Below are positions 4,672-40,262 of a stretch of DNA of 64,000 nt, piece after piece. Below the pieces are notes generated by a model. The model saw only the letters and a list, made by a program, of their open reading frames with translations, made no database searches and was not told the DNA's origin. The stretch covers positions 5,693,053 to 5,757,052 of the forward strand of contig CM119266.1 of the NCBI GenBank assembly GCA_051294375.1. Direction: 5' to 3'. A program made the translations under genes and the position numbers. The stretch comes from Paraspadella gotoi. Lineage: Eukaryota; Animalia; Chaetognatha. Positions within the stretch are counted from its first letter, which is position 1, and every line of letters begins with the position of its first letter.

Positions 4672-4724
<53 letters not shown>

Positions 4725-16586: not shown

Positions 16587-16945
16587 TCACACATAAGTGA
16601 CCTGCGTGGTTTTCGAGGTTTTCTCCCCCTCCCCCGCCGAGGGGGACCCGAAGGAAAAGGGGGAGGAGATTGTTTGTTTGCCCAGGGGCGGGGCGTTGGG
16701 GGAGAGGGGGCTGCGGGAGGGCGGGGCGTTTGGGGAATGGGGTCCGCGGGAGGGCTGCAAGGGCAGGAGGAACCCCGCAGGCACGGGAAGCTGACCCGCA
16801 ATAACGGAATTCTTACGTTGGGCGAAGCCTTGCGCCGCCGCGGACAAGAGGTTCGAGTTTTGGCCGTTGAAGAGAATCTGCACGGTGTTCTTAACGTACT
16901 GCTTGGGACGTTTGCCACTGTGGTCACGGATGTTGGGGTTGGCGC
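16587..16945 (-). CDS. SOWAH: SOWAH-family ankyrin-repeat protein, terminal coding exon (G)ANPNIRDHSGKRPKQYVKNTVQILFNGQ...SKTTQVTYV*
   Basis: Acceptor ccgtttccccAG at 16946-16947. The phase-1 start (G+GC) continues 'EEAY' from the previous exon. RDHSGKRPKQY matches the SOWAH C-terminal ankyrin motif RDYSGKKxxQY as I recall it. The frame stays open to TGA at 16587-16589 through a Pro/Ser-rich tail. Confidence 0.85.
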
Positions 16946-18152
16946 CTGGGGAAACGGGGGGGGGGTTGGGGAAATGGGTGTGAAAAATTTAAAAGGATTG
17001 AGGATATTACTTAATATATGTGGTTTTAGGTATTAAATAATTATAAGTTATAAGCAGAAAAGAAGAGGTTTCTGTCTTGAAAAACATGAATAAAGTCAGT
17101 TTTTACATATTTAAGAAGTCTTTTAGGTTAAGGTTGCATCCATTATCATCGTGGTTGTTAAACCTGAAAAGCTTTTAAGGAATTTTTTCTCTTGTCAAAG
17201 CTTTGAATGCAACAAAAATCAAAGCATCCGAATCACAGGCGATTGTAACAGTAAAAACCCTTTTCGTAACATAACCGCCTCTGACTGCATCATCGATTTC
17301 CGATTTCAGTTCTAACAGAAAAAAACGAAAACAAAATTGAAGTTAGCGAGAAGCTCAAAATATTCGGTTTCCTCAACGCCCAGTCACCTCTTTATCTTTC
17401 AGCCACCCCAAGATCATATTATCTCGCTATCCCTTCCTCTCTTTTGACTCATCTCATTTCAAAAACATCGCAATCACATCACCCCTTAACCTCGGCACCT
17501 CCACCGGCCAACTTAATTCACCAATAACTCGCCCATTTCACTTTCCCCCTCAACCCCCTCTTCCTCCCTCTCTCCATCTCAAAAGTCCATGAAGTCAGAA
17601 AAAGAAAAAGCGAATCTGGGCGAGTCATTCTACATCCTGTCTGACATCAGGAACAACAGATCGCAAGATCAAAGGCGTCCAATGCCGACGACGTCGCTTT
17701 TCGAAAAAGCCTAAACCGATGGAAATGAAAATTGACGCGCGGGTTGAAGGCTGACACGGACGCAAATGAAAATTGACACGTTGGGGAGGGGGGGTAGGGG
17801 TTAGGTTGGAGTGTTAGGGTGGAGGGAACGCCAAAATCCGCAAATCCTCTCTCTTTGCTGATCGACTAATTTTTTTTTAATGTAAAAATAGAAAAAAGAT
17901 CAATGGGTAATATTCGTCGCCGTTGTTTACATTGTAAACCGTATAACGACTAATTGCCTCAACGTTTAAAAAAAATATGTTCAAATTGTAAAGAGGCCGA
18001 TTAAATAGCAAACACACACTCTCNNNNNNNNNNTCTTTTTCGCTTTCTCTGTGAGACTGGAGCCTCTCTCCCCGCCATTTGGCGTCTGGTCGTTGAGTCA
18101 AGTATCTGGGTGCTTGAAAAACTAAGGTTTCAACCTAAGCGATCATTTCGGA

Positions 18153-18184
<32 letters not shown>

Positions 18185-18475
18185 CGATTCATCAAGAGAA
18201 CTGCCACAAGAGGAGCCTTTGAAGGGGAGCCGAAAGCGAAGGCCAGGCTAGGAGAGGGGGATCCGATGTCGCAAAATGGATTTTTCAAGGATTTGGATAA
18301 AGATTCAGAGTTAAACCATTTCTGAATAAAACATTGGATTTATAAACGGCATTGAGAGCAGAGTAGATATACGCATTAATCTCATACTTAATCTAATTCA
18401 TTTTTCATCCCTATCCTAATAGCTCAATCTAAAATATTATCAAGCGAAGAGTACGCTCATTAAAATCTGACTCAC

Positions 18476-18548
18476 CATAGGCCTCTTCAAGAATGTTCAT
18501 GATTTCATGATGTCCGTGCATCGCGGCCAGGTGCAAAGCTGTGTAACC
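18476..18548 (-). CDS. SOWAH: SOWAH ankyrin exon GYTALHLAAMHGHHEIMNILEEAY(G), 73 nt, phase 0-1
   Basis: Polypyrimidine tract plus cttcAG acceptor and G|GTGAGT donor. GYTALHLAAMHGH is essentially the motif I recall from vertebrate SOWAHC. Confidence 0.93.
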
Positions 18549-19995
18549 CTGAAGGAGGAAAAAAGAACAAAATGAAAAAGAAGCGAAATTTGAGCGATAT
18601 GAAATTAATACAGTAGCATCCGTCAAGAACTTCTGAGACGGCAAGCTCTGTAACTCGAATACAAATGATAATTTGAAAGCGAGTTTTTGTCTTGTGAAGC
18701 CTTCGTTAAGCCATTGCTCTCAGACCACTTTCGGGACATAGAACTTTTTGTAAAAAGTTTATTCAGCCACATTTGAACCTGAAACCTTTTCTTAACGTTG
18801 AAGTCCGGCACGTTAAGAGCTCGGCCAAATGATTTTCAGAAAAATTTCGTTCAAATTAAATTAGGATCTTACGACCAATAAAAATGCTAGTATTGTGAAA
18901 ATTTTAAGACAATGATTTAAGAAAAAGACGTAAATAACTACTTTTATAGCAATTGAGTTTGTAATAAGCTATGATAGATTATTAGATATTTACATTAGTC
19001 CCCCTCCACGCGACATATATTATCCGTGGGTCTCTACAAAGACGCCCGTGTTAACCAATCGGGGAGGAGAGAATAATACATCAACGAGATGAGAGAATTC
19101 ATGCTGCTGCGCAATTGGAAAAGAAGATAGAAGAGAGATGGGCCGCGGCGTCGACGCGTCAGCCTACGGCAGCGGCGGCGGGGCGGGTCCATTTTCCATT
19201 CTAACATTATTTCCAGTGGCTGACACATGTCGCGATATGATATTCACAGCGCGGACATAGATCACGAGATTACGATGGTACGATTGAAATCGACCGGAAG
19301 GGGGCGTGGCGTCGATGAGTTCTATTTTTAGCTCACGTCTTTCTCTGTCTCGCCCGTCGTTGTAACGACAGAGAATGTAAAAGAGCGAAAGAAATCTGAA
19401 CGAGAAAAACCTTGAGCCTTCGACGTCGTTATTTTCTAACTAGAACTTTCGCTTTCTCACCCGTTTTTCGCGACCTTCGGGCCAAGCGCGAACAGAGAGA
19501 AAGAGAGAGATGGAGAGAGAGAGGAAATGCATTCATCTCTCATCTTCATGTAGAAAATGGTAATAGAGAAAACGAGGGTGGGATGATGTGCGCCGCGACG
19601 GAGAGAGAGCGAGAGAGACATGAAAATGGGGAAGAGGATAACCTGTTTAAAAATGTATGAAGAGAGGTAACAAGGTTTCAAGTAGTTGTCTAACAAGGAA
19701 GGCGTTTTCTTGGATGAAAGCACCGGGTCTGCCTCCAAATTAGGAAATTTAAAAGATGCCGGTCACCGAGAAGAGTGTGTAGCTATGTACAACGAAACTC
19801 CCAGCGACGGAGAAAAAAGGTTAGATAATAATAAGAATTAAAAATATATAAATAAGAATATGAATAATAGAAAAAATAAATCATTAAATCTCCTACTAAT
19901 GTAAATAAATGAAATCTTATTTCATCTAACAATATTTCAAAAGACATAGAGACCGATCATTGCAGAAAATGAGACATTTTTAATTGTAGCCCCCT

Positions 19996-20028
<33 letters not shown>

Positions 20029-21895
20029 NNNNNNNNNNGAGACATAAAAAAAAGCGAGTTCGAAACGTCGCCAAAAAACTCCATTAGGACGACGTCATCT
20101 GCATTGCGATTTTCCTTCTCCAAAAAAACCATTTATTCAAAATTCAAAAAAGTATCTCGCTCTCGCTTTCTCTCTCTTCTCCGAAGCGAAGGAATCCTCT
20201 TTAAAATTACCGACGCTCATAAAACGGGAGAGAGAGAAAATGGAAACGGCGCGTTGAGAATTTAAACGACCGAATTCGATGAGAATGGAGTTTCAATGTA
20301 CTTTTAACGACGGGACTGTATTTTAAGATTGTGAGCTTAATTGATTAATTAAATGCAGGATTTAAAGTTACAGCTTGCAGTGTCTTGTATGAGTGATGAA
20401 GGCCTTAACCCATCATAGCCTGTCCTAAGTAAGGGTCGAGATAGCTTAATTTTTAAATGAATAATTAATATAATTAATAATTAAAATAATTAATTTTAAA
20501 GATATAATAATATAGACACACCCCGCTATACCTTCGGCCCCCTCCGCCATTAATATTTTATTCCAATACAACTTGATGTATTCGCTTTCCGGTTTCATAC
20601 ATCGAATCGCGAGGAAATGTCGGCAATTGTAAAGGGGTCGCCTTACATTCTTGATGAAGAACGATTTCTTTTTTTAGAAAGCCGATAGTGAATTTGGCTG
20701 GGGGGGGCGGCTAAGGGGGTGGTTATGTCGAGGGCGAAACTTTCTCACAACTTTACCCACCGACGGTGAATGAGGAATTCGATTGTGAAAAAAAGAAATC
20801 GAGAAAAATGTCTTGAATTATTAAGGCGATGGGGGGAGAGAGAGAGAGAATATGAGATGGAATGAAAATGGAATCGGAGAATGGAATGGAGGTTATTAAT
20901 GTCCTGCCCAAATACACGAGTTCTTTTTTATGGTACAACGAAAAAAAAGATTTTGGTGACGAATAAAAAAAAATCTTTTGTAGATGAAGTTGATAGGAAC
21001 TCGAGTGAGAAGGTGAAAGAATTGAAATCTACACATGTCAAAGAATTTAAAAAAATATTATAAAATTTAAAAGAAAATGAGAGATGATGTAAAACATGTA
21101 TGAGAGAAGAATATTTAACTTGCAAAATAAGGAAAATTTAACCAGAAGAAGAAAGTTAAAAAATGACAAGCCTGTGAACATACAAAAATAAAAAAAATAA
21201 AGAAAAAGACCAGAAAGACACACTCACACACATACACTCAGACTCTCTCTCTCTCTCTCTCTTTCTCTCACGTCGGGACAAGAGAGAATTCGATCTCAAA
21301 CATGAATAATAAAAGAGAAATCTAATTGCGATTCGGGTTATGACGAGAGAGAGAAAAAGAAAAAGAAAAAGGAGAAAGAGATGAGAAAAGAGGAGAGTCA
21401 GGAATGCCGTCGTCATCGTGATGGTGGTATTGGTTGATGGTGGCGGGTATAGTGGTAGGTGAGGGGTGAAAAAGAAACCTCTCTCACGAGAGAGAAAGGC
21501 GAGTCTCACGCACAAAGGGCGACGTCAAAAGTGGAATTTCGTCGCGTAGATGAATTATGTGAGGACAGGACCCTTGGCTTCGCCTCGGGGTCCTTTTTGC
21601 CCCCTTCCACGGCCCCGTATTTCCCGCGGGGCGGCGACGCCTTCCCGCGGGGATTCCCTTTTAGAGACCAACGGCGAGAGACTCTGGCAAAAAACTCGTA
21701 CATATGTCGAGGCGTTGGGAATGATTTTAAAACACGTGAACGTGGGAGTCTTAGATTCGTGCGCGTGCGATAATTGGACATGCTTAAATGATTATATAAA
21801 GATTGTAATAATAGAACTAAAACTATTTCTACTCCACCAGGATGGTGTTTATATAAATGATACAAGTTAAGCGAAAATTTAAAAAAGTAACTTAC

Positions 21896-21901
21896 CCCAT
21901 T
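21896..21901 (-). CDS. SOWAH: 6-nt microexon AATGGG (Asn-Gly) of the SOWAH gene
   Basis: Minus strand reads ctaat...ttttctttttcccctttcccccttcttttgctcatcCAG|AATGGG|GTAAGT. Inclusion gives exactly 33-aa ankyrin spacing between SALH and TALH (31 without it). Also present in the second copy at 49119-49124. Confidence 0.88.
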
Positions 21902-23240
21902 CTGGATGAGCAAAAGAAGGGGGAAAGGGGAAAAAGAAAATTTTATTAGTTGACGCTAAACATAATATCATATTTTCAGGAACAAAAACCATTTTAGTAA
22001 TTTTTAAGATTATATATCATTTGGCAAAATTCTATTTTTAATCAGTGAAGAAATGACGCTCGTGAAATACCTAATATAATGACATTATATACAAATTTTA
22101 CAAAGGGTTGTTCCGATTCAGATTAAGTTTTACAAGTTTATTTTATTCTTCTTTTTTTTGGACATTGCTCTTCCATCTCCCTTCAAAATAAGATTTCCAA
22201 GACCAACGGAAACCCAAGGTTCCGAAAGCAAAAAATCCGCGCGGGAACCAGAAAACCCAATAACTCGCCAAATTCGGCTAAAACAAACAAATACACGAAA
22301 AATATGGAGGAAAGATAAATCTGTAAAAAGAAATGGAAGAGAAAAAAGGAAAATAAAAAACAAAGCTCGTGTATATGGAGAGAGAAAGAAGCAAAGACGA
22401 AAAAAAAGAAGCTATTCCCTTATTCCCAATTCAATCTCTTTCTACGACCGTCGACACTTTAGATGGCGTTGGTCGTTGTTCCATTACGCGGCCAGCGACG
22501 ACGACGACGACGACGGGCTATATGGGAGGGGGACGCGTGTTCTAGATTGTACCGCCGGTGATAGAATTAGAAATCAACTTGTTTCAACGCGGAGCGGAAG
22601 AGGAGGGGGGAGGAGGAGTGACGCGCGTGCGTGGCACGGGAGGAGGAAGAGGAGGGACGACGGGAGGCAGCTCTCTCTTTCTCCCGTGCAGCGAGGAGGA
22701 GAAAAGAGAGAAAAAAAAACCCCAACGCGGACTGAGAGAGAGAGAGAGAGAGAGAGACGCCATCTTCTGCTGCACTTTTTTTCTCTCTGTGCCGCAAGCC
22801 CAACAACAGCGCTGCTGCCTTTCTTTCTTTTTCTCTCTATCTCTCTCTCTCTCTCTCTCTCCCCACAACGCGCTTGCTCGCACCGACTAGTGTTCCAACA
22901 ATTATTTCCTGTGTCAACAATGCACAACAGCAACAATGATGGCTTGCCGCGCTCCAGATGACGTCCTTTCTCTATGGCCGGGGGGAGAGGGGGGGGCGAG
23001 CGAGAACGCGGCGTCCGCCCAGGGGAAGAGAGAGATGGGGGAGGCGGGATTGGCGCGACGGTCGCCGAGGGGCGCCGACGCCCGCAGACTCATTTCCGGC
23101 GACGATCATGCCGAGAATACTAGTGGGGGCGGCGGCGGCGGCGTGGGTAGCGGCGTCGGCGGCGTTCGGGAAAATGATGGAATCGTATACTCGGCGCGAT
23201 GAAGGCCGATTGAGGTCAACGCGTTCTCTTCCGGGGGGGG

Positions 23241-23272
<32 letters not shown>

Positions 23273-25646
23273 CGGGAAACGTGTGTCCTGAGATGAGAGA
23301 CGAATCGAATTCTATTCTTTGTGCGCATTTCCTCTTCTGAGGAGAAATAACCGACTATTTTATAGTGGGTAGAAAAGATCGAGGCGGAATAAGATAAACA
23401 TCTGAGATGAGTTTGTATGACAATAACACATTCACAACGATTTATTGTTAATCACTGGTCTGTAAAGAATAACGATTACCGATTCATATTAATTAATATT
23501 TAAAAGAAAAGTTTACTTCAATTGAAGATGCATTAAATTTTTCGTCACAAGGTATTTTTGAGTAATCACGTGATAGCAAATTTTACAGTGCGTAAATATC
23601 AACTAAATAATGAATATGTAAAATATAAATGGGATAAACATACCGACTAAAATTGACTCACAAAGTGGCTTCGCTAGTAACAGCGGCGCTACTAACAAGT
23701 ATAATACTGTATTTCATATCCTGTCCTCGATTCAATATCAAGTCTAAAGAAAAGACTGAAAATCCAGAATTTCCGAGAGATTTCCCAGAAATTACAACCC
23801 CCCCTCCCACGATGCTCTAGACGGGAAACGGGGATAGAAATGGAACAAACAAGTCCTCACCCCCGATCCTCTCACATCAACCCCCCCCATCATCTCTCTC
23901 TTTCTGTCCAGAAGGAAATGATGCGATGAATAAATGAGAATGTTGCACTCCGGTTAAAAGGGAGGCTGCATAATTGATGAATCCTCGACAACCGCGTCGG
24001 TGATGTGTGGCTGTCATAAGCACTCTCGACGGCGGAGTCGGAGATGAGGAGGAAGGGGGGCGGTGATTCCCCCCCCTCATCAACCCACGGTAGATTAATG
24101 AAGAAGGGTTACGCGGTCGATCGGCGGAGGTTTTAATTAAGTTTTTTTGATGTTGTTTAGGAGAGAACAATACAATTTTCTATACCTTATGATTACATAT
24201 GTCTAAAATAAATTTGAGTAGTTANNNNNNNNNNAAGGATCGTCATTCAAAGATTTTTTTGAAACGGGCAAGCGACCAAGAACTAGTGTCAGCTAATGCG
24301 GACAATAAGAAAACTGCATGACGCAATATTAAATATTTTTTTAATATTATAGTAAATTCTAGTAAATAGTTCAAATATATATACTTTAAAACCAAACAAC
24401 TTTTCGCAATGAACAAAAGCGCTCGTTTTTTCCCCTCGTCCAAGAATAGACAAGTTGTAATATTTCATTGTCAGAAATCCAAACTCAGAGGGTAAAATAA
24501 CTTTACAGGGCCGAGTTGTGTAACCGGAACCCAGAATTGTAAAATATAATTATAAAGAATAATATTTCACGAGATAAATAATTCTATTAATATAATTAAC
24601 ATTTATAAAATATTTTAGTATTACAAACCATTTGCAAGAATTAAACCTACATTAAGAAGAGAGAAAAACAGAGAGAAAGAGAGAAACAGTGTTTGTGTGT
24701 GTGAGAGAGAGAGAGAGAGAGAAAGGAGAGAGGGTCGGGTGGAGTTTGGGTAGGCGAGATTTGAGTTGGACTTAATTCTATTAGGATCCGATACGAGGCT
24801 CCATTCCGAGAGGATCAATGGCAAAGGAGCCGCCGTTTTGCGGACGCCGTCAAACGTGGAGAAGATTGAATGGGGAATGCGTGGGAAGGTGGCGGGGAGT
24901 CAGTGGGGGGAAGGGGGAAGACAGTTGAGGGAAGGGGATGGAGGAAAGAGAGAAAAAGATTACTACATCCCTTTCCTTCAACTCCTTAAGTAAAGTGATG
25001 GGAGAAAAAGTATAAATAAGAGGGAGAATGGAAGAGATGGAGAAAAAGTAAAATAATGATATATAAAGAATAGCAGGTTGTGGGGAGCGACGGGCGAGGG
25101 GATTTAATGGCGAAGAAAAGAAAAGAAAACTTGAGTCGGAATAAATCTTAGTTAAGATTGAAAAAATCCCAAACACATTTCAACCCGAATCGTGAGGAAA
25201 TGTCGAAATTTAACCGAGGACTTTGTGTCTCATTTTCCATATTTGTTTTATACATTCATGAATCAAAGAGAGACGAGCGACATTTAAGGCTGTACATTAA
25301 TATTTTAGATATAAAACTTATTGGTATTTTAAAAATAAACGCCAAATGGAGTTGTATATATAATTTTTAGAGTTGTATTAGTAGTTGTAAAATTGTATTG
25401 AAAAATCTAAAATGCACTACCAAACTACAAATAAGTAAAAATATTTTTATCGGTACAGTATTTGCTTCTGGCAAAATAAAGAACTTTTAAAATATGTGAG
25501 GGGAAGATGGAAAGATTGATATTCCCTTTCTATCTCTCTCTCTCTCTTTCTCTCCTTCCCCCCTATCTCTCTAGAGATCTGCTTTCTCCGAGAACTCTCG
25601 TCGCCCTCGGGCCTCCGTGCGTGAAAACGTCAAAAGTGATTTTTGT

Positions 25647-25705
<59 letters not shown>

Positions 25706-26245
25706 GATTGGCCCCGCTTCGCCGTTCAGCCTCCGCTATTCTTTTCAATCTTCGTCTTTTCCGATTTATGCCTGCGAGGGAGGGGCGTAACCGAGGGTTA
25801 CGAGCTTTTGGGTAAAGCGAAACTTGACTTTGATGGTGTGCTTGTGTGTGTGTCTTGGCCCTCTCTCTCTCTCTCTTACTCTCTCTCTCTAAGGTATTTC
25901 ACGCGTATCTTCCTTCACGACATTCGGGTGAAGAGACTCGCCCATTTGACGTTCACGTCTCGTTAGGGATTGAATATTTTTTCTTCCTTCACGGGTGATG
26001 GCATGTTTATTAGAATTTTTTGTTTCAATATTCAACTTGAATTTTAGTACGCCATTATTGTTGCGAATGTTGTACACAAAGTAGAATTTACTAGGTCATT
26101 TCAGAAAACAAAACCCCCCTTATCACCACCCCCGTGAGAGGGTGTTCTATCACAGTAACACGCCCAAAATTAATACGATGTCAATTCTCACAGTAATAAT
26201 ATCAAAACAGTCGAGTACAGTTTATCTCTACAGGGTGATACTCAC

Positions 26246-26332
26246 CGACTTGGCGTTGACGTCGACTCCGCAGCCAGCGACGAGTTTGACGACTTCGACC
26301 TCACCCGCCTTCGCTGCCCAGTGAAGCGCGGA
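26246..26332 (-). CDS. SOWAH: SOWAH ankyrin exon SALHWAAKAGEVEVVKLVAGCGVDVNAKS, 87 nt, phase 0-0
   Basis: Pyrimidine-rich ccttCAG acceptor and TCG|GTGAGT donor. It is a canonical ankyrin repeat with the SOWAH-typical LHWAAK motif. Confidence 0.93.
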
Positions 26333-29301
26333 CTGAAGGGTGGGGGTAAGGGGTAGGGAGAAGGGGAAAGATAAGGGAGTGGGCGATAAGGGTTGGTAGA
26401 AACGTAAAGAAGAATGCGTGAAAAATCGATTGCATGTGAAAGTGATGCGTGAGAAGCAAAAAAAAAGGGAGGGAGAAGAAATTAATGATTTCGGTTGTAG
26501 AAAACAAAGAAGACAATGGTGGGTGGATAGGGGAGAAATAATGAATGGTAGGGGAGAAAAAAAAGGGATCGTGGCAAGGCGGGGGGGGACAGTTAAAAAA
26601 GAGGGATTTTTTGGCTTTGGAGGCCTCGACGTAAAAAAGTCGTAAAAAACATTCGTGTTTAATAATCGCCGGTAAAAAAAGTTTTTGATGGAGGGAAAGA
26701 GATGGAGGGAGAGCACGAGGGGGGGCTGAAGAGAAAAGCGCTTAAATGAGAGAACAGGCATCTCAGAGAAGTTTAACGAGTTGTTAGGAATAGAGAGGAT
26801 CGAAAGTAAGTAGTAAAACCAAGGACCACCAACAACGGAGCACAAAAAATGTACGGAGAGAAGGAGAGAGAAAGCCGTTAACGGTTTAGGACCGCGGGCG
26901 AGAGATAGAGAGAGAGGGGAGAACAGAGAAAAGTTTTAAGCCTAGGTACAATACCAAAGCATTCTGCAAAAAGAAACGGATTGACCCGGGAAACGAAACA
27001 AAAGACAAAAAAAAAACAAAAAACAAACAGAATAAAAAACAACAAATAAGAAGGTCGGTTTCGTTTGAAGCGCCTATGGATAAAACCGCGGTTCATTTGT
27101 TCGAAATAAAAATCGAGGAAAAAACCGTGAAACGAAATCGCGTCAACACGGATCGTTGATTTATTTTGAAAAAGAGAAAAAGGGGGCAAGAGATCCGTGA
27201 AAGAAATGAGTGAAACGCGGTGAAGCATGAAGCGGTGAAGTGAGAGTTTTGGAGCGAGAGAGAATCAAATGTGTTCGCTGTGAATGAGAATGAAGAAAAT
27301 CCATCTTTTCTCAAACTTTTCATTTTGATTAAGTGACAAAAAAGAACCCGTTTGGTTAACTGGAAAAATCACGATTCGATCTCCCCCCCAAAAAAGGGGG
27401 GAGGGGGTAGAAGTTCTAGGAAATCACTCAAGGGCGAGTAGACTTTGACACATTGTCTTCGCTCTGCCCGAAAAACGACGCCTCTTGGCGGGCTGCCGCG
27501 GGCTGCCCCCTTAACGAGAAGATTAATGAAGGAGAGAGGCGGACCCACCACGGATCCCTTCGACGGGCCCCTTCACCCACCGCTCACAACAATCCCGCCT
27601 CTTCACTCCGCCGCCGTGAAAAATGGTCTGTGAGAAACGAGTAGCCGGATTTGTGAATGGGGTGTTTGCGAGCGTGGTGAAAGCGTCAAAGTTGTGTGAC
27701 GAGTTTTTCCTTTTGATCTTACTTGTCTAATTTTATTTGTATCAGGGTTTAGATAGAGAATAGCTTCTGTTTGGAAATTACTTTAGTTTACTGATAGCTA
27801 AATTAGCACTTTTGGAAATATGTGGAATTGGAGTTCTTAAATCTATTACAAGTAGAAGATATAAAACCAAAGAAAAAGTAAAACGTCCCACATGCGAGAG
27901 AACCTTATATATTTGTTTGTGAAAGAGAATCAAAATGTAGCTTTTAACAAAGCTTAGAACATGAAGGAGTCCAGTCAAAAAATGTTCCTCACCCCAAGTA
28001 GAATAAAAAGTAGTGGATAGGAAATAGAGAGATGACGACGAGAGGAGACACGCCCCAAAAGAAAATAAAAGAAAGAAAAACGTGAGAAAACCTCACTTCC
28101 TCTCGGCGAAACCTCGCCTTTCCCTCGCGTACGATTCTCCGTCGCTCTTTCGGAAGCCAATCCGGTTGGAGGAGACAGAGAAGGGGGGGGAGGATGTGAT
28201 TTCTAACGCCCGGGGAAAGTATTTGTGAATATTGTGAATATCACGAGTGTTTGTGAATTTATGCATCGTTCTCGCTCAGCAACGGGAGTTGGGGGGGGGG
28301 AACGAAATAACGAGAAAGCCGAAACTTTGTGTTTTGGTCACGTGATTTTCGAATTATTCATTGTTTGTTTTTTTGTTTATGGTCGAAGGTTTTTGAGGCG
28401 ACTAAACTCGTATGAACTTTTTTATACAATTTTTTTTTAAATCTCATTTCGCTCGAACGAGTGACTTTTTTTCGCTTCTGTTTAAAACCTTGAAACATTA
28501 AAGGGATGTTTTTTTCGGTATGAAAGTCTGTCGAATCAAACTTTGCCTAACGCCCTCTCTCTCTCTCTCTCTCTCTCTTAAAAATTAAAAAAAAGAAGTC
28601 TAATCTGTACCAGTTGTTGTTCGTGTTCTCGTGTAGCGTTCGTGACATGGGCCTCGGCCAAAGTAAAACCGATATTTAAGCCAAAAACCGAAAAACAAAA
28701 AAAAGAGAAAAGGTTGAGAACGCCCCGTCTCACGCGCCAAGGGATCCTCGATCGACCAAAGAGGCGGGAATTCCGATAATTTTCCGGCCAATCAGCGTCG
28801 CGCTTAACGACCCGGCCAAAATTTTTTTTTTCTCTAAAAATCTCGAGATTGAGTATCAAAGAAAATCTCCCGACCGCGGGGAGTTGAGATGATTGGGAGG
28901 GGAGTGGAGATGGTGAGGGGAAGGGGGTGAGGCGAGGGGAAGATGGGCTTTGAGGATTGGGGGAGCTCGACCCCAAGTCAAAGTCGAACCGGAGAGGATC
29001 GACCAGAGGGAGCTGGGGAAGGAGAAGGCGTCTGAGGGAGGAGGGGGAGAGAGAAAGAGAGAGGCTGACAAAAACATTTTTTGAAGAGGAGAGAATGAAA
29101 AGGGAAATGTCACTCATTGTCAAGAATCGAGGACGAAGATCGATGATGTTTGGGATGAGAGAGAGAGAGAGATTCGAAATAGGAGCGAAAATAAATCGGT
29201 GAAATCGTACGAAGAGCGTAATGTACATATGATTACTGCGTCTCACACTTTTTATTTACGAAATCTAAATGACGCGATAAATGGAAGTATCACGGGGGGG
29301 G

Positions 29302-29574
29302 CACTGAGAAAGCTTGTATAGAGAGACCTCCAGGTTAAACTCCCGCTCTTCTCCGGACCCACCAATCGCCACACTGAGAAAGCTTGTATAGAGAGACCTC
29401 AGGTTAAACTCCCGCTCTTCTCCGGACCCACCAATCGCCTACACTGAGAAAGCTTGTATAGAGAGACCTCCAGGTTAAACTCCCGCTCTTCTCCGGACCC
29501 ACCAATCGCCTACACTGAGAAAGCTTGTATAGAGAGACCTCCAGGTTAAACTCCGCTCTTCTCCGGACCCACCA
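29302..29574. repeat. Tandem repeat, ~3.9 near-identical units of 70-71 nt (cactgagaaagcttgtatagagagacctccaggttaaactcccgctcttctccggacccaccaatcgccta)
   Basis: Units start at 29302, 29372, 29442 and 29513, with no unique spacers. Confidence 0.97.
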
Positions 29575-30294
29575 GCAAAATGGTCTTTCTTTATGCCCCC
29601 AGCCTACCCACCTCCTTCATTTTGGTTCGAAATTTATTGACTCAGCAATTCTTAAATTTTTATATTTTATTGATAATTTTATTATCTTCTTTCTTGAGCT
29701 ATCTTGATGGAAGCTAACAAAAAAAATTAATTTGCCATTAACCATTTTTTTAAAAATTATATTGCTTTGATATACTTTTTAACTAAACAATACTATATAG
29801 TCTGAAGATTTTTATCTTATTTTAAAATACTGCAATATGTGAATTAAGAAATTAATAAACAAGTTTGCCGTAAACAATGTCGGATCTGCCCACGATCATT
29901 ATCGGTAATTAAATAATTAATAGTATTATGATAATTAATTAATTATTAATTATAATTAATTAACTTATATCCGAAATATTATTCATGGCTCCGAGATTTA
30001 GTCTATCTCTCACTCTTCTCTCTCTCTCTCTCTCATACACGCGTTTGTCGTTCTCGATTTTGGATCACTTTAACTTCTTTGTGACGTTGTCGTCGTTGTC
30101 TTCGTCTGCGTCGGCGTCACGCTTTTTCTCTTCTTTCTTTCTCTTTCTTTCACTTATACATGCATTTGTTTTATTTACGATGAACGATTCATCGTGTCAA
30201 TGAATGATTATCATCATATCAATGAATGACTATCATCGCATCAATCATATGCTTATCATCGCATAAATTATTGGTTATTAGTTATCATCGCGTC

Positions 30295-30700
30295 TATTTT
30301 TTGTCTTTATTTTTTATTTCTTTATTTTCTTTCTTGTCAGGCGAGATCCTATTCTTTTAAGATTTTTTAAAATTGTTTTCTTTCTTTCTTTCTTTCTTTC
30401 TTTCTTTCCTCTTTTCTCTTTCTTTCCTGTTCTCTCTTTTTCTTCCCTGCCTCTCTCTCTATTTCTGTCTCTCTTTTTTTTTTTTCTCGTCTCTCTCCTT
30501 TTTTCCTTCCATCTCTTCTCCTTTTTTTCCTTCAATCTCTTTTCTCTTTTTTTTCTTCCATCTTTCTCTCTCTCTTTTTTATTTCCGTCTCTTTTTTTCT
30601 TTCCGACTGTTTCTTTTCTTTCTTCTTTTTTTCTCTCCTTCTCTCTCTCTCTCTTTCCTTTTTTAATTTCTACTGTCTTATTCGTTTTTTCTGTCTTTAT
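30295..30700. repeat. Long polypyrimidine (T/C) low-complexity tract inside the insertion
   Basis: ~400 nt consisting almost only of T and C. Confidence 0.9.
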
Positions 30701-30807
30701 TCATTGTATATTAATTTTACTATTATTGTTTGGTGATAAATGCTCATTACTTAATTAAATTAACTTCAAACTTTATATATTTTATTATTATTGATTTGAA
30801 ATTTTAT

Positions 30808-31105
30808 CTGTAGTTATTTTCTTAGTAAATTCAACGATTTGACTACTCTCCTGATAGAGCTTATTACTCTGTTAAAACTTAAAACCCCATAAATCCGCAA
30901 ACCATAAGGATCATGGGATCACAGTCCTGACTGTTAAGAATAATATAAGTGTTCTCTTTGATTAAACTTTAATAAACGAGTAACTGAAAGTAAAATTAAT
31001 TTTTTCGCTCATTTTGTAGTTAATTTCTTAGTAATTTTGACGATTTGACTCTCTCCTGATATAGCTTATTACTCTGTTAAAACTCAAAACCGCATAAAAC
31101 CGCAA
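30808..31105. repeat. Diverged direct repeat of ~95 nt (about 30808-30900 and 31014-31105), with a partial third copy near 31215
   Basis: Shared tgtagtta..ttcttagtaa..acgatttgact..ctctcctgata.agcttattactctgttaaaact.aaaacc.cataaa.ccgcaa. Confidence 0.85.
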
Positions 31106-34100
31106 TACACTATTATTAATGAATAATAGTTCTAACTATTAAAATAGTTGACAGTTTCCATAGAAATTAAACCTGGTTAAACCAGTAACTTAATGGTAAA
31201 GAAAAAATTTTAATCATTTTGTAGTTAATTTCTTATATATAAAAATAATTATTTGTGACTGGACAAGTACAATGAAAAAAATCATTTCTCTCTCACTTTT
31301 AGAGATTAAGAAAAACCGCAACGACATGCTCATGCTAAAACCTTATGTTATGTATTAAAGATAGATAAAACCATTTATATTATCAATTATAATTAAACGA
31401 GCCTATTATATTAAAAACTTGTCTTTTTCCTTAAAATGAATAGTAAATTACCTCCTAATAATGCTTAAAAATATTAAATACCGAAAAAGGCATAAAAAAT
31501 TATAAAACCAGATGATGGTTTTCGGAAAGAATGATAAAACAGCTTCAAGATCTCATATTACAATTGGAATATGTACTTTTAGTAAGGAACTGCATCAATT
31601 AAATAAAACATGTTTTTATCTAAAAGGCGTCAAAGATAGGGAGACCGGTAGAAAAAGATAGGTTTGGATTGGAAGGTTTTTTCTCGGTATAAGCCTTTCA
31701 GATCGCTTACTATTGAACCCTTCTTTTAAAATTAGATTACCCGCTACTGGGTTCAGGATATTTTCCTGGAGGCATGTGGCACCGTGGGGGGGGAGATGGT
31801 TAATTTCTCATATCTTTCTCTCCCAGAAGAACGGATATACCACGAAGGCGAGGGGAGAGGGTTGGCTTAAAAGTTTGGAAGGAATGATCCAAACATTACC
31901 CAGAGAGATGGGAAACATCTTTCTCCAAAATTGCTCGGCCGTATCGCGTATCATCCGCTCGTGCTTTTAGCTCCGTTTCGCAACAACGCAAACATCATGT
32001 TCTCATTCCATCGCCGAGATTTAAAACCAAAATAAATCCGCCACTATACACGTTTTTCATCTGTTTTAAAATATCTCCGAAAAAAAAAAGAGAAATAATT
32101 TGTCTTGATTAAATTTTTACAAAATATATCCAATTCGTGTCTTTTAAACTGAAATTGAGTTTTGGATTAAAAGCACGATTTAATAAAATAAACAAAAGAA
32201 AGATTACGATATTTTTAAAACGCCGCTTTAGCTATAACGCATAGTAAAGAAAATTATTTTGATAACTAATATCAAATGTTTAAACAGTTACTAAATTCTT
32301 ACATTAATACATCGATATACAAAATATTTCCTTAAACGCTCTGCGCGACTGTAAAGCGACATCTGTAAGCTGTTATCCGAATATGTCTGACATGTGTTTT
32401 GCTGGAGCGTCCTCTGAGACTTGAATATCGTCTTTCAAAAGGCCGATACAATTTCATAAATGGAAGGGGCCTGGCTCTGGGAGCAAGATTTTTCCAGACG
32501 TCAAAATCTATTTAGAATGAAATGTAAGGTAAGCCTTTAAGACAGAACAGTTGTGTAACAAAGAAAGGTTTATTCATATATAATTTTTATAGAATTAAAA
32601 ATATCCGGGAAATACGAGAATAAAACCGAAGCAATTTACTCTTACTTAAACCACTTGACCCTCCTCTGGATAAATAATAGAGAGAAAGATAGGATTTCAA
32701 TCACAAAAGGTTCATCAAAAGGCAGAGATATAGAGTCTTCTCTTTCTCTCAATGACCGCAACTAAAGGACTCAGCAGTTATTTGACCCCAGAAATGAAGA
32801 AGTCGGTATCACTGCGGCGAGAGTGAAGAATCTGATAGTTGTTATCGTGAAATGTGATATCATCTCCAAGACGCGGCTGAGAAAAACATAAGTCGATACA
32901 GTGATCTCGGTGTAAAATCAAGATTATATATATTCGATAAAGCTGTTTTAAGACAGTTCAGAAACTACACTGTATGTACTTTCACTACTCGAATACAAAA
33001 CCCTTATTAGATTAATAATACGTCTAGATAATTACATAATTACATCTGACTAAAAGAAACGTATCGCATCACAGCGACACAAAATCGATAACAATTCATC
33101 GAGAAATGAAATTAATCCTTCATGACATCTACAACACAGAATGAAAACCCAAAAAACATCGTGAGTGACATGAGACGATTATGTCCAATTATCACTCTCT
33201 CTCTCTCCAGATAGAATCACCGATCACAAGAGGAAAAACCGAACTGCGAGCCGAACGTAACCCGACTAACCAGAACAATGAAAGAGAGGATTCGTGGGTG
33301 ACTTAAGGCGGATTAAGGGTGTCAATGATTCTTGCATTGTCCGTGTTAACCCGGGGCGCCCGGCTTTATTTTTCTCTTTCTTTATTCTTCACGCACACAG
33401 TTTTTCTCTCTCTCTCTCTCGGACCGGAGGTTTTAATCTAAGAATAATAGGGGCGGCAACATCACAAGGATGAAAAACAGAAGGGGAGGCGAAAGGGGAT
33501 TTTTTTTCTTTCCTCGTTTCGATCGACGATCGGATGTTGTGTTGGGGATAGAACTCGATTCGCCATCGGGAGGGAGAAGAAATGTTGGATTATTAAAAGA
33601 ACAACTGTTGAACATTGAGGTTCCCTTTTTTTATGTGGGGTGGGAAAAAAACGGAAAATAAAACGTGATCAGAAATAATATAATTAATGATTAATGAAAA
33701 CATTTTTAAATGGTCTGTTTAAAGCTTCAAAAAGAAAAGAATCTATAAAAATCGCGTCAATCACAAACGACGACAGTTCCTCAATCACAAACGACGTCAG
33801 TTCACAAAGAGAAACAAAAACCTTAAACGATTTTCCTCCTTTTCAATTAATTCCGACTTTTTCTTGACAAAAAAAAAGAGAAAACGACCCGCAGGTTGAG
33901 CGAGAGGCCAATTTTCGGGAGGAGAAAATGTCCCCCCAGTTGCCAGAAAAAATGGGCCGCAATTCCTCGAGGCGAGAACAAGATCATTTCTTATTCCTCC
34001 CGAAATTCTTGCTTCGGCAATCAATTTTCGGGCGTCAACTGCTTGTCTCTTCTTTGCCTCGTTTGGGGAGAGAGAGAGAGAGAGAGAGAATAGCTTGGGA

Positions 34101-34544
34101 ATTCTAAAACGAAAAGAAGAATCGAATGGAAAAGAAAAAAAATCCTTTTCATTTGAGGAAACAAAGAAACGATACCAACACCTCCTTTCCCCCTCGCCCC
34201 CCTTCACCGCCAGCAGAGAAGAACTTCACGGTCGAGAAAATCGAGGAAAATATGACAGTGACCGCCTTTGGTCAGTGAACCGCAAGGGTCAAAGGGTCTT
34301 CGCGGCAGAAGTATCACGTCAAAAAACCGTTACTGGATAAAAAAAAGATCTGGAAAAAATATTAAAAGCTCGCACGCGTCTTGCTATGTATAAAACATTC
34401 AATATTATATAATCATTTATGACATAATAATATATAAGCCGAGTGAAAACACAACCCAAGTTCCGATGCGGGTGAGCGGGGGTCGTTCCGAGAGACTTCC
34501 AAGCGTCAAGAAATCGGTTCAGTCGAAGAGAGAGAGAGAGAGAG

Positions 34545-34590
<46 letters not shown>

Positions 34591-35466
34591 CCTCGGATAA
34601 AAATCCTCCCCGACCCCGAGTTCACGGATCAATTACTATCTCTTCTCGCGTCTCCTCGGCGATGATTGACTCGGGGAGGTTGCGGCTCCGCAGCGGCGGC
34701 GGGCAGAGAGCGGCGGATACGCGCGCAGGCAGCAAGACGAGCGGCAGGGCGGCGCCCTTTTTCCTCTGACCGAATCTCTCCAGAGCCGCGAGGGGCGACG
34801 ATTAACGAGGAGAGAAGAGAGGGGGGAGGCGTTGGCCCTATCGAATACCGTTCCCAATAGGGGGGGGACTGTGGGGGAGAGAGATTAGGGATGGCGATGC
34901 GGGGAGAAAAGAGAGAGAGATAGGAATGTTTATGAATTGCTACAACTGATTTTATTGCCGAGAGCCTCGCATTATTGTCGCGATTGTTAAATCGGTTGAC
35001 GGGGAGTCATCGACTCGTGAAAGGACCACCCACTGACGAATCGAAAAATCGATCATGATCGGCTATTGAACGGATGGCGGAGGGATGATTATTTCTAATA
35101 TTTTAATATTATCATTATATATATAAAATAGAGTGTCAAAAGTGACTCAAAATCGTGAATAGGAGACAAAAATTTATAAGGCCAGGACGTAAGTCTATTA
35201 CTTTAGCTAAGAAATAAATTGACATTTTAATAAAAATACATACTATGCAACAAATTTTCAAAACGGAACCAAAAAAAATTCGATCAAAACAGATAAAGTT
35301 AAAACCAAACAAGAAAAAACTCGTAGAGGCAACAGAGAATCAACCTTCAGAAATAAAAAAAAGAATTTGAAACGATTGAAAAAAAAAGCCTATTTGCTCG
35401 CGGAATTAAGGCGCATTGATCATGTTGCAACCGCTGTCCGACAGGCTTTGTTGGTGTCACACAGGC

Positions 35467-35512
<46 letters not shown>

Positions 35513-37020
35513 TCGATTGTCCCTCTCACATCGCGGCCGTTCTGTTTCAGCTGGAAAGATCGATGTGAAAATCCGAGAGGGACACGCAAAAAGGAAGTTT
35601 CCCTCACGCCTCCCGACTTGCCCACTTCCAACACACTCCGTCGGCAACGCCCCCTCCCCCTTTTCTCAAAACTTCTTTCACGACACCTTCCACCTTCGCA
35701 CCAATCTCACACACCCTCCTCACAACTCCCCCCCTTCATTTAGATTAAACGGAAATCCTTAATCCCTCCTTCGCCGACCGAGAGAAGAACCGATTTTTTT
35801 TTTCATTTCCGATTTGAGAGAACGAATTTATTTGCCTTCACATTCGGCTCGGCTTTTAAATATAAACATGTTACATTCATTATGTCATATAAAATAAAAT
35901 ATAAACAAGTCGCAGGAAAGACAAACGTGGAGACGCTCTATGGTTTTGAAATCGCGATCGTCATCGTTTTCATCATCGTCGTCGTCGTCGGCGGCGGCAG
36001 GGGGAAAGATATTGTCAACAGAATCTTTCCACTAATGGAGAGCCCTTGCCTCCGCGTCTATATCCTGTATTTTGGGAAAAGAAAAAAAAAGAAGAAAGAA
36101 AGAAAAAGGAAACTCCTTCCTCCGCCTCTTCTTCCTCCTCCTCCTTGCGCCTTTGTTTGGGAACCCGCACGTGACTTCGACGTCGGCCGCGTCGAAGGGA
36201 AAATGAAGGCCGCCACGCCCCCCCTCTCCCCCACGTCTTTTTTAGCGCGCGGAGAGAGGAAAAGGGTGGGAAAGGTAAGAGTTGGGGGGAGGGTGAGGGT
36301 AAAACGCCGTCTGTCCAAGGCTGGGGGTATTAAAGCGAGGATTTATCGCGGATGAGAATTAAAAGGGAGAGAGATGGAGCGAAAAGGAGGGAGATGGAGT
36401 GAAATGAAGCGACGACTTTAAATCTCTCGTTTAAAAAATGAAAAAAAAGGCGAAGGGGGTGAGGTGAGGGGGGAGAGAGAAGAGGGGGAAAGAGAGGATG
36501 GGGGAGAGAGGGGAGAAGAAGGGGAAGAGAAGAAGGGGAGAGAGAGAAGCGTTTGCTTCGACGTCGGAGGCGAAAAGGGTCATTTTCAGGTCATCTGAAC
36601 TGCAATTCTATGGAACAGCGAGATCAGGAACTATTTAAAATGACAACGACCGAAATCGGAAAAAAAAGGAACTAAAATGTAAAAACTGACAAATATTCAT
36701 CCGAAAAGACAAATACGGTATTTTTTTGAATGGAGAAAACTGAGATAGAATGACAAAGTAAAATGACTAAATTTCCTTTCGTTTATCGTTGACAGATTTC
36801 GACCGAAATTTGTCAGAATATAACATAGTACATCACAAGGTTGTAAGTGCGAGTGTCAATCTTTCTCTCTCTCCATCGGCGCTTAAACGAGGTCGTCGTT
36901 GTGTGCGTCATTCCACAAAATCGACGAATGTTTGATACAAGAAAAACAAACAAAAACGAAAAGGGGATGATCGGCGAAACGCGAAAAAGAGGGATTAGAC
37001 AGTAGAAAAGCTGCGAAAAT

Positions 37021-37092
<72 letters not shown>

Positions 37093-37465
37093 AATGAAGG
37101 AAGGGGTTTAGCGTGTCGGAAAAGTAAAGGTAGGGTCTGATAATTCGGCGTCTCGCGAAAGATCAGTAAACTCAAAAGGGACGGGCAAACACGACGAACG
37201 AACGAGGGTAAGGAAAACAAAGTGAAAGAGAAACGGGTAAGGAAAGAGAAGGGAATGCGCTGATGTGTATTTTATCCGGGTCTTTGCCAAACATCTACAA
37301 ACAAGAGGGGGACGAAGGAAAGGAATCGAGGGGGGGAACATTTTCGGGCCTCGAAAAGCAAAAAAAATTTCATTACTCGCTATTTAGGCAATCGGCCGCC
37401 GTATTTAGTTGAGAGGCTAATAAATTTGATATAAGACAAAAGAAAATAAATAAAATGGTACTTAC

Positions 37466-37468
37466 GTA
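37466..37468 (-). CDS. SOWAH: Candidate 3-nt microexon TAC (Tyr) of the SOWAH gene
   Basis: Minus strand reads aatCAG|TAC|GTAAGT, preceded by ~78 nt free of AG and containing an upstream-shifted pyrimidine tract. It supplies the Y of the expected G-Y-(T/S)-A-L-H-W. Retained in the second copy at 62895-62897. Confidence 0.7.
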
Positions 37469-38438
37469 CTGATTCGGCGAAATAGTTCGAAGGCGAAATT
37501 GTTTAGGGGAGGAAAAAAAATTGGAGGAGAAAGTAATTAATTAATAAGCTGTAGTTGTGACAATCAACTATTCAAACCGCCACGACAATCACGGAATATT
37601 TCCTTTGCGGGAAAGAGAGAGATGGTTAAATCCCTTCGTGACCTAAAGTTCGGGAGGGGCGATATAGGGGGGAGTCTTCCAGTCTGCAATGACGAATCGG
37701 CAGCGCTAGAAATTCAGTAACGTCTTAGTACTATTACAACCGCAATTAAGTCTTTAAGAGAGAAATTAAAGACCCCCAAGTAAAAAAAATTAGTCAAACT
37801 GGGCTATCTTGCTATTAGCCAATTTCTAAATCGCAACCCAATGGTCTCCGCCATATGGTTTAAAATAAATATCTTCTTCACTGAAAGCGTCAGCAGCTGT
37901 TTTTTTGTTTCGAGAGATATCAATCGAAGAATGGCTCGCGATAAACGAAGGGGACTCCCCGACCTTCGAATTAGATTTTCGTATTTTAAAAAAGACAAAA
38001 CCAGCGCTGACTTTAGTCCACGTGCGTTAGATAATGAAACAAAGCGCTGATTGCACGGGGGCGTTCGTTATGTTTCGTGTTTTATTCCATCTCTTTCCAG
38101 CGCTTGGGCGCCGGTCAATTCGCTCGCTTCGTTAATTATATATTTGTCCGTAGTGGTGTTGAAGGAATTACGTCTGGTTTTTCTTTTTATTTTTTTTTCT
38201 GAATTACTAATCAATTATAACCTTCGCCAATTGTTTGAGGTATGATTTTGATGGATGGGATTTTTTGTTCTCTGCCATGAATGAAGGTTGGAGATGTCTG
38301 ACTCTCCTACCCTTTTTTTAAAGAGTCTTTCAGTAGCTGAGCGGCGGTTACCTCATACCTGGCCGCGAGTCTCTGAACACAATAGAACCGAGGCTAATTT
38401 AATTTTTCTTTGCCTTCCTTTTTTGACATTTTCTTCAG

Positions 38439-38450
38439 GATTCATGCTCG
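38439..38450 (+). CDS. SOWAH: Candidate 12-nt microexon GATTCATGCTCG (Asp-Ser-Cys-Ser) of the SOWAH gene, in the inverted block
   Basis: ctaat branch-like motif, strong pyrimidine tract, ttcttCAG|GAT TCA TGC TCG|GTAAGT. It gives D-x-x-S-G-Y-S-A-L-H-W, matching the SOWAH D-F-I-(S/T)-G-(Y/F)-T-x-L-H-W register. Confidence 0.72.
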
Positions 38451-39693
38451 GTAAGTTTTTGGATCTCTATTTTTTTTTAAATTTAAATGTTGCCGTAAGT
38501 ATTTAGCCATTTTCGTTTTTAAGATTTTAATTCTAGTTAAAGCCTACACTTCTAATTTTTTCATTGTAATTATTGTTGTTTCTTTGATTTGCTAAAATTT
38601 CGTTTTTTAGAACAAAAAATTATATTTAAAATATAACGAAACTAGCTTACTCGGAAATATTAATCTATCTGGGAACAAGAACCTAAATTCCAAAAGTCCC
38701 AAAATCAGTGGGTTTTTTTCTTTCATTTTTACGATTTTAAAAAAAAACCTTGAAAACGCATTTCGGAACCGTCTCATTCACGATCCAGCCTTCGCCAAAT
38801 TAGCAATGGAAACCAGAGGTTGTTCTCGGTCGCTTTCCCTTTGTTTCTGTCTCTTCTCTCTTTTTTGTCTCTTTGTCTCTTCCTCTCTATTGTCTCTCTC
38901 TCTCTCTGTCTCTCCACCTTTCATTCTTAGATCCTCGGCGTCGCCCGATTATTTTTCCCCTTCGGTCGCTTCTCCTTTCTCGCCCCTCCATCGGGACGCG
39001 CGACGGAGGCGGGCCGAGGACCGTCTAGGGCGGGCAGAGGGCCTATTGGGGCGGGCAGGCGGTCCCTTTTCCTTTTGTCGCCTCTCTCTCCCACTTCCCC
39101 CTCCACTGACTTTTTTGTTCCAACTTCTTCCCGAATCATCACCGTGAAATACTCCGCGCAGTAAAAGAGGACGCGAAAAAAACAAAGAGGGCCTCCGACT
39201 CGAAAGGCCCTTTGTTGAGTAAATGAGTGCGAGGAGAGAGGAAGAGAGAGAGAGAGAGAGAGAGATATGCATAAAAACGAGAAAGACAGAGACCAGGAAG
39301 AGAGAGACTTCGGTTCTCCACGATATTTTTTTGTGGCGGGAGGTTGCGAGGCAAAAAAAAAAAAAGAAGAAAACAATCGGAAATATTCAAATAACTTCTG
39401 AATTTCTTTTCTTTTTTTTTTCGCGGCCTTGTGTTGTGTGTTCTGACGCTGATGAATGATTATTCACCGACTGGGGGGATCATGGTTAGAAACGTGTAAC
39501 AGCGTCGTGACAAGGATGCGAGAATCGATTTTGGCAGAGATTTAAGATGAATGTTATGGTTGTTCAAGGTTATTAAATTTTTATGCTTTTTTCTCTCTCC
39601 ACCTCTTTTTTTTTTTCTTTTCCTTCCCACCAACCTGGATATTTTTTGGGTCTCCGTTTTGCCCTACCGTTCATCATTGGAATCTCAATGCAG

Positions 39694-39696
39694 GGA
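39694..39696 (+). CDS. SOWAH: Candidate 3-nt microexon GGA (Gly) of the SOWAH gene; on + only because block 37613-40292 is inverted
   Basis: aatgCAG|GGA|GTAAGT with ~120 nt upstream free of AG and a long pyrimidine tract. In the colinear second copy it is on the minus strand at 63643-63645, upstream of the TAC microexon. A third copy is at 40561-40563 (-). Confidence 0.7.

Positions 39697-40231: not shown

Positions 40232-40262
<31 letters not shown>

Follow-up and report, generated by a model that had tools for sequence, protein, structure and literature searches.

We analysed a 64,000-nt stretch of the Paraspadella gotoi genome (contig CM119266.1; hereafter the window) and found that its Sowah gene very probably assembles two inter-repeat ankyrin loops from four phase-0 microexons (12, 3, 3 and 6 nt), which occur together in the transcript found, are likely constitutive and follow an ancient layout common to Drosophila. 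The exon borders, their order, their joint inclusion in one contig and the same layout in the fly were directly observed. The features are as follows.

38439-38450, plus strand: 12-nt microexon, phase 0-0, lying within the inverted block; reads DSCS in the window and DFIS in the transcript contig; fly counterpart ME119
39694-39696, plus strand: 3-nt Gly microexon in the inverted block; seen in the transcript contig; fly counterpart ME3
40561-40563 and 63643-63645, both minus strand: further assembly copies of the Gly microexon
37466-37468, minus strand: 3-nt Tyr microexon, with a copy at 62895-62897 (minus); seen in the transcript contig; fly counterpart ME2
26246-26332, minus strand: 87-nt exon, spanning positions 4 to about 32 of Pfam Ank; the transcript contig has exactly these ends
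21896-21901, minus strand: 6-nt Asn-Gly microexon; seen in the transcript contig; fly counterpart ME19
18476-18548, minus strand: 73-nt exon, starting at Pfam Ank position 2 and ending in phase 1
16587-16945, minus strand: predicted following exon, 359 nt up to the stop if read through
37613-40274: inverted block of copy 1, with a GA/CT microsatellite at both ends, carrying the 12-nt and Gly exons
40919-64000: noisy second copy of 14205-40274, placed by alignment to copy 1

Searches with tblastn revealed that SOWAH-named proteins match three exons in order (Penaeus SOWAHC-like against the 87-nt exon, 73%), Pfam Ank scored above cut-off in both exons scanned, and the Sowah/SOWAH ankyrin pattern LHWAAK ... 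GGYTxLH ... RDxSGK was present. The 12-3-3-(core)-6 exon layout also matches fly sowah. On this similarity and common layout we assign the gene to the Sowah family, as the earlier note had done, and identify it as an intron-containing Sowah (sosondowah) with its ankyrin-coding part within the window. In the predicted exon at 16587-16945 the last repeat is completed (G-A-N-P-N-I-R-D-H-S-G-K), and a GTAAGA donor occurs internally, 129 nt in; used as a query, this exon found few relatives (1 match; or 4, of which 2 were apparently unrelated and ankyrin-like). Many Sowah homologues bear an N-terminal winged-helix domain (PF25877), and profile scans of positions 1-41000 detected no further N- or C-terminal exons (best E 2.7). 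Upstream Sowah exons lie beyond the window.

The ladder of 12-3-3-87-6-73 nt described in the earlier note was found in full at these places: all four small exons have CAG/GTAAGT borders, are phase 0-0 and frame-preserving, and supply the missing loop residues, with flanking introns of 0.7-11 kb. Relative to chance expectation, YAG-GGN-GTAAGT gave 3 matches (one site in three assembly copies) versus 0.08, YAG-TAY-GTAAGT gave 2 (one site in two copies) versus 0.01, and YAG-NNNGGN-GTRAGT gave 1 versus 0.01, a count reached in 1 of 100 shuffles; the generic YAG-NNN-GTRAGT matched 6 times, at 3 distinct sites, versus 0.66. A third 3-nt candidate (about 35183-35186) was rejected, being on the wrong strand, antisense to the gene. 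The pyrimidine tract claimed for each microexon held for the 12- and 6-nt exons, whose tracts are normal (pyrimidine fraction 0.85 and 0.90), but not for the two 3-nt exons, which are weak close to the AG (0.55 and 0.60 at -23..-3) and have tracts displaced 40-100 nt upstream (0.95 and 0.90). All four donors read GTAAGT rather than the weak 5' splice site of fly eMIC targets. RNA folding of five stretches around the four microexons was no better than in shuffles (z -1.12 to 1.29), and an RNA-structure mechanism was rejected on this ground. Judging from the sequence, the strong GTAAGT donor would let the spliceosome find each microexon, and the two 3-nt exons may be recognised also via the displaced tract.

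Joint inclusion was seen in run X9, which is RNA by guess (none being recorded as RNA), backed by its exon-only cover, and which belongs to a study other than that of the DNA runs. Contigs were compared with the window over one 511-base stretch, where a single X9 contig (depth 302.9) aligned on exactly 26246-26332 with flanking intron cover absent, and DNA runs X1, X3 and X5 spanned all 511 bases with no other letters. Its loose ends translate as A-K-M-K-D-F-I-S-G-Y upstream of the 87-nt exon and N-G-G-Y-T-A-L-H-L-A downstream, and the first 24 bases of the 73-nt exon are found there. With D-F-I-S-G-Y before and N-G-G-Y-T after this exon, the four microexons were included together, a result that comes from one contig of one run of guessed RNA status, contigs being prone to drop minor variants. 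The Gly, Tyr and Asn-Gly units proposed to flank the 87-nt exon are thus jointly present in the transcript contig.

The same contig overturned the reading of the 12-nt exon as DSCS in the earlier note, since the transcript reads DFIS. It is very unlikely that 38439-38450 is a second, diverged DSCS exon with the DFIS exon outside the window, or that DSCS is a true allele. Although the window and transcript letters disagree, they differ only by the loss of one base from a T run and the gain of another, the error type dominating here, and across 607 columns the inverted block shows 21 differences (about 3.5%) that neither of its two other copies shares. The window contains no DFIS form (search allowing 3 mismatches) and the RNA and DNA runs come from different studies, which would suit a separate exon or allele; however, the exon lies 1243 nt upstream of the Gly exon, fitting the fly layout (3.1 kb), and D-F-x-x is the commonest loop start among homologues. 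We read 38439-38450 as the 12-nt exon of the ladder.

Aligned with copy 1, the second copy showed 87-88% identity along most of its extent. Indels prevail among the differences (1541 gap letters against 465 mismatches in 16.3 kb), its exons are frameshifted, and it opens with an N gap. A paralogue was rejected on the indel noise and frameshifts, and this copy most likely represents unpolished, raw long-read sequence, possibly from the other haplotype. It passes from the equivalent of 37612 (63047) directly into the reverse of 40274 (63059), which indicates that block 37613-40274 is inverted in copy 1 and confirms the exon order previously taken from the colinear second copy. The 12-nt exon is about 900 bases past the end of copy 2, and the transcript sets DFIS directly before Gly. 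A real inversion allele, with one haplotype's transcript lacking the 12-nt and Gly exons, is highly improbable. The 37612/37613 junction in copy 1 has no N gap, and a 2.5-kb insertion distinguishes the copies, hinting at two haplotypes; nevertheless, the GA/CT microsatellite stands at both block ends, the block stops at an N gap followed by 40318-40893, an inverted duplicate of part of the block, and another inverted duplicate occurs in the window (1-1431 versus 4008-5452). Microsatellite ends, N gaps and inverted duplicates are typical of scaffolding and gap-filling errors.

In the Pfam register, Gly and Tyr occupy Ank positions 2 and 3 and Asn-Gly positions 33 and 1, and an AlphaFold2 model of homologue P0116, which matches DARPins, placed both microexon stretches in inter-helix loops (pLDDT 95-98). 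These results support a location in the inter-repeat loops, in line with the hairpin loops named in the earlier note, but DSSP assigned no strand in the microexon loops of the P0116 model, so the term beta-hairpin rests on general ankyrin knowledge. In the available portions of PMC4308713, D and G of the designed consensus DxxGxTPLH are framework positions and the position-5 backbone hydrogen-bonds Asp1; relative to this consensus, the microexons fill turn positions 1-5 of one repeat and positions 2-3 of the repeat after it, and SOWAH loop 1 (D-x-x-x-G) is one residue longer. Microexon inclusion would be needed because the Asp and Gly framing the ankyrin turn, together with its tip residues, are encoded there.

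We further surveyed 44 contig-derived SOWAH-type proteins and 22 genome-annotation models. A dipeptide was kept at the loop-2 Asn-Gly position in 44/44 contig-derived proteins, and loop 1 was full length in 42 (one with Leu for Asp) and one residue short in two (P0103, P0112); P0099, seen later, was also one residue short in loop 1. The suggestion that gene predictors miss such exons was corroborated, as 11 of the 22 annotation models were defective at the loops versus 2 of the 44 contig-derived proteins one residue short. Including the 6-nt exon gives an LHW-to-LH spacing of 33, and omitting it gives 31; homologues range over 33-37 except for five genome models at 32.

The same ladder stands in Drosophila melanogaster sowah (FBgn0036302) as microexons ME119 (12 nt), ME3 (3 nt), ME2 (3 nt) and ME19 (6 nt), which carry a FlyBase tag (PMC8042270, Tables S4 and S5). 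Microexon lengths, coding-strand order and the Gly, Tyr and Asn-Gly codons are equal in the two species, and the fly likewise has a pair of adjacent single-codon exons, separated by about 1 kb; in contrast, the 12-nt exon encodes C-P-A-T in the fly (translated here) versus D-F-I-S, and the Tyr to Asn-Gly distance is 3.1 kb in the fly versus 15.6 kb here. All four fly exons are listed among 128 CDS microexons that the authors class as constitutive, which they define as PSI = 1, and none is in the AS sheets (PMC8042270). The samples were head, body, gonad, embryo and larva, and the TopHat pipeline behind the PSI values might have overlooked rare skip junctions. The layout is already recorded, in FlyBase and in the tables of PMC8042270, whose main text does not mention sowah. 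Our literature searches found no title or abstract discussing the ladder, and they reached no supplements, where the fly evidence stands.

In the available portions of PMC12311624, PMC5803294 and PMC5010895, the Iroquois-Sowah genomic regulatory block likewise comprises an intron-rich Sowah gene with large introns, which host Iroquois enhancers in the fly and other bilaterians; the flanking introns here would likely persist for this reason. Unlike in that block, no Irx gene lies within this window, which contains no Irx homeobox motif. Maeso et al. 2012 (Genome Res 22:642), the source cited for the block, may also mention the tiny conserved exons. In tetrapods, an intronless retrogene took over from the parent Sowah gene (PMC5803294, available portions), suggesting that Sowah function can do without microexon splicing.

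The earlier note had proposed up to 16 isoforms, produced by independent skipping, that tune the binding surface; this is unsupported, given constitutive fly orthologues, the all-in X9 contig and the framework role of the Gly and Asp positions. Such a 16-way code is unlikely, since the fly pieces are listed as always included. More broadly, it is unlikely that the microexons are regulated cassettes whose tissue-specific single-codon skipping tunes the ankyrin surface, be it through 16 isoforms or one or two regulated exons. All four are frame-preserving, and Asn-Gly and Tyr map onto positions randomised in designed ankyrin binders, although DARPin diversity arises by substitution at fixed length, not residue deletion (PMC4308713, available portions). 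Four arthropods have RefSeq isoforms that are distinguished by precisely these units: Gly is missing from Cryptotermes X1 and X3, Polistes fuscatus X2 and Daphnia magna X1 and X2; Tyr is missing from Cryptotermes X2 and Polistes fuscatus X1; and Megalopta X2 is without both the 12-nt exon and Gly. However, the Gly missing from the Daphnia models is present in Logan contigs, which suggests that aligners fail where one 3-nt exon directly follows another, and Asn-Gly was lacking in none of the 44 contig-derived proteins.

The 3-nt exons do resemble eMIC-type exons in their AG-free zones (123 and 78 nt) and displaced tracts, as does the Gly exon in the TGC adjoining its AG, but the AG-free zone of the 87-nt exon is longer than theirs. 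Neural microexons dependent on eMIC/Srrm3/4 are also very short and frame-preserving; in contrast, they are tissue-regulated with weak donors in the fly (PMC8797185), and the fly eMIC table has just one entry for sowah, a 46-nt exon, the four microexons being absent. These differences, together with constitutive inclusion in all fly samples, argue for the constitutive ladder, under which any skipping would reflect faulty annotation or noise at a low level and not a code for tuning; minor skipping may occur in Sowah, given the RefSeq isoforms without exactly Gly or Tyr. It seems improbable that some bilaterian cell types skip the single-codon Sowah exons to a regulated and appreciable extent, with one-residue loop variants altering ankyrin partner binding, the Gly- or Tyr-less RefSeq isoforms as a trace and the switch lost in tetrapods with the retrogene.

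Overall, these findings provide a correct Sowah gene model for Paraspadella gotoi and expose a clear failure of annotation, in that the microexon loops are wrong in half of the 22 SOWAH models derived from genomes. Regulated skipping, if true, would matter more, as a binding surface would then be under splicing control down to the single residue. The ladder is also naturally suited to studying how two adjacent 3-nt exons, both apparently constitutive, are positioned by the spliceosome over introns of kilobase length.

An ankyrin-repeat gene lies on the minus strand, and its 3' part falls within the window. The four tiny units described in the earlier note were all found at their places, and each of the four is bordered by CAG upstream and GTAAGT downstream. 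The sequence was read from 15500 to 46000, and the exons extracted (reading frame checked for the last) are as follows.

38439-38450, plus strand: 12-nt microexon
39694-39696, plus strand: 3-nt microexon, Gly
37466-37468, minus strand: 3-nt microexon, Tyr
26246-26332, minus strand: 87-nt exon
21896-21901, minus strand: 6-nt microexon, Asn-Gly
18476-18548, minus strand: 73-nt exon
16945 to stop at 16587, minus strand: following exon

Splice-bordered sites with the needed codons are expected by chance 0.01-0.08 times per window, and a generic 3-nt exon pattern gave three distinct sites in the window versus 0.66 expected, two being the Gly and Tyr exons and the third antisense; these patterns were picked with the answer already known, and the chance figures are supporting only. 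The intron that separates the 87-nt exon from the 6-nt one contains a GC-rich island with GGC and GAC repeats (22500-23250), a candidate regulatory element.

The 87-nt and 73-nt exons scored above the Pfam Ank cut-off (starting at profile positions 4 and 2). The 87-nt exon had 89 matches, the named animal one being a Penaeus SOWAHC-like protein, and SOWAH-type proteins align in order across all three larger exons. Searching with the ankyrin region of the Penaeus protein returned 915 matches, of which 120 were listed and 119 examined (P0014, a repeat, was left out); 66 carried the SOWAH-type pattern, and at least five of the 53 without it were SOWAH-like. We split the 66 by hand on the source column into 44 that come from contig assemblies or transcript sets and 22 taken from genome annotation. 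Among the matches listed, the former held the dipeptide of loop 2 (the Asn-Gly site) in 44/44 and a full-length loop 1 (coded by the 12-nt, Gly and Tyr exons) in 42/44, versus 11/22 complete annotation models, a result in support of the claim that gene predictors would miss these exons. Six of the 22 miss or wrongly fill the inserts of both loops; in five others a single codon is absent or miscalled. Three annotation models (P0138, P0236, P0238) have Val-Ser in the Asn-Gly slot; reading through a GTnAGT donor would give this dipeptide, a recognisable signature of a missed 6-nt exon.

Nine sequencing runs contain the stretch, none recorded as RNA and one (X9) taken as RNA by guess. When aligned to 25960-26470, which contigs from three DNA runs match without other letters, X9 yielded one contig (1440 letters, depth 302.9) that covers 26246-26332 exactly, with zero intron cover. 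Its 30-letter overhangs, reverse-complemented, read A-K-M-K-D-F-I-S-G-Y upstream and N-G-G-Y-T-A-L-H-L-A downstream of the 87-nt exon. Splicing therefore includes the Gly, Tyr and Asn-Gly exons, as had been predicted, with the 12-nt exon ahead of Gly; the contig displays the dominant form only and gives no measure of skipping. X9 also contains 0.24 of the sampled words of 16500-26400, although only some 5% of that stretch is known exon; intron retention, a different transcript or shared repeats could account for the excess.

The 12-nt exon, claimed to encode DSCS, reads DFIS in the X9 contig. A single lost base and a single gained one separate the two 12-mers, and the rest of the window holds no exon of the DFIS type. 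Self-alignment revealed that 40919-64000 (copy 2) repeats 14205-40274 (copy 1) at 87-88% identity across most of its length. Gap letters between them are three times the mismatches, exons are broken in copy 2 and an N gap stands at its start. Copy 2 reads as unpolished long-read sequence, perhaps from the other haplotype, since it is without a 2486-base insertion (29301-31786). Within this insertion, which sits in a G run, are 3.9 copies of a 71-base tandem repeat, a long tract rich in CT and a duplicated segment of 205 bases; it is probably an intronic non-autonomous transposon that is polymorphic. Copy 2 joins the equivalent of 37612 straight to the reverse of 40274; thus, copy 1 carries block 37613-40274, flanked on both sides by GA/CT repeats, in inverted orientation. 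Three copies of the Gly region exist (21, 38 and 29 private differences per copy over 607 columns), and the 21 in the block's own copy indicate that the inverted block is itself noisy. The simplest reading of the DSCS spelling would be a base-calling error in this block. Inverted near-identical duplicates beside N gaps (1-1431 vs 4008-5452; 39353-39947 vs 40318-40893) are further assembly artefacts, and given these the copy number of the scaffold is not to be trusted.

The observation in the earlier note was right except for DSCS, but its model of up to 16 isoforms through independent skipping drew little support, the fly ladder being listed as constitutive. The available portion of PMC8042270 gives FlyBase-tagged Drosophila sowah microexons of 12 nt, 3 nt (GGC), 3 nt (TAT) and 6 nt (AACGGG), in the order of the window ladder and on the minus strand, with a 27-nt microexon listed besides. 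All are among its 128 constitutive CDS microexons (defined by PSI = 1 across data pooled from head, body, gonad, embryo, larva and adult) and in neither of the two AS sheets. They stand in the supplements, sowah being unnamed in the main text as available; the layout is already annotated in fly. In the fly eMIC table of PMC8797185, as far as accessible, sowah has a single row, for an eMIC-sensitive exon of 46 nt, and absence of the ladder there is weak evidence given that the pipeline may not hold 3-nt exons.

RefSeq isoforms without exactly Gly or Tyr occur in cluster members from Cryptotermes, Polistes fuscatus and Daphnia magna, and Megalopta X2 lacks the 12-nt exon plus Gly (four other Megalopta isoforms are complete); these gaps bear out the exon borders for other arthropods. 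None of the listed RefSeq models of the first three species has both codons, yet both codons are present in two Daphnia Logan contigs from that cluster, a pattern that fits failure of the aligner to place one 3-nt exon directly after another. Genuine skipping at a minor level is possible, and a loop 1 one residue short in three proteins (P0103, P0112, P0099) may reflect either lineage change or skipping.

An AlphaFold2 model of homologue P0116 (alignment of 41 sequences of complete proteins) matches DARPins and places the two stretches coded by microexons in loops between helices (179-193 and 212-227, pLDDT 95-98); DSSP assigned zero strands on it. The designed consensus DxxGxTPLH randomises positions 2, 3 and 5 for binding and keeps D and G as framework; the position-5 backbone holds the turn via Asp1 (PMC4308713, available portion). 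Because they correspond to randomised positions, Asn-Gly and Tyr are plausibly ligand-facing, as had been proposed, but loss of Gly, Asp or residues at the tip would be likelier to disrupt the turn than to tune it.

The last exon contains an internal GTAAGA donor, 129 nt from its start (16817/16816, minus strand). The X9 contig stops 209 letters beyond the 87-nt exon (6 + 73 + 130), and its end may mark a branch between splicing at GTAAGA and read-through to the stop. The read-through tail ends in T-Q-V-T-Y-V (T-Q-I-T-Y-V in proteins P0001 and P0209), which we take to resemble a PDZ-binding end. Two C-termini are possible for the Sowah gene; no exon downstream of the last was found in the window.

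Overall, the ladder is most likely an ancestral, constitutively spliced microexon set of an intron-containing Sowah gene. All four microexons have strong donors, which may aid recognition, as may pyrimidine tracts moved upstream at the two 3-nt exons; no structure stood out in RNA folding around the microexons. The accessible parts of PMC12311624, PMC5803294 and PMC5010895 describe Iroquois enhancers housed in Sowah introns and, in tetrapods, a retrogene that took the place of the Sowah gene. By analogy with this literature, Sowah introns may have been kept through their enhancer content.
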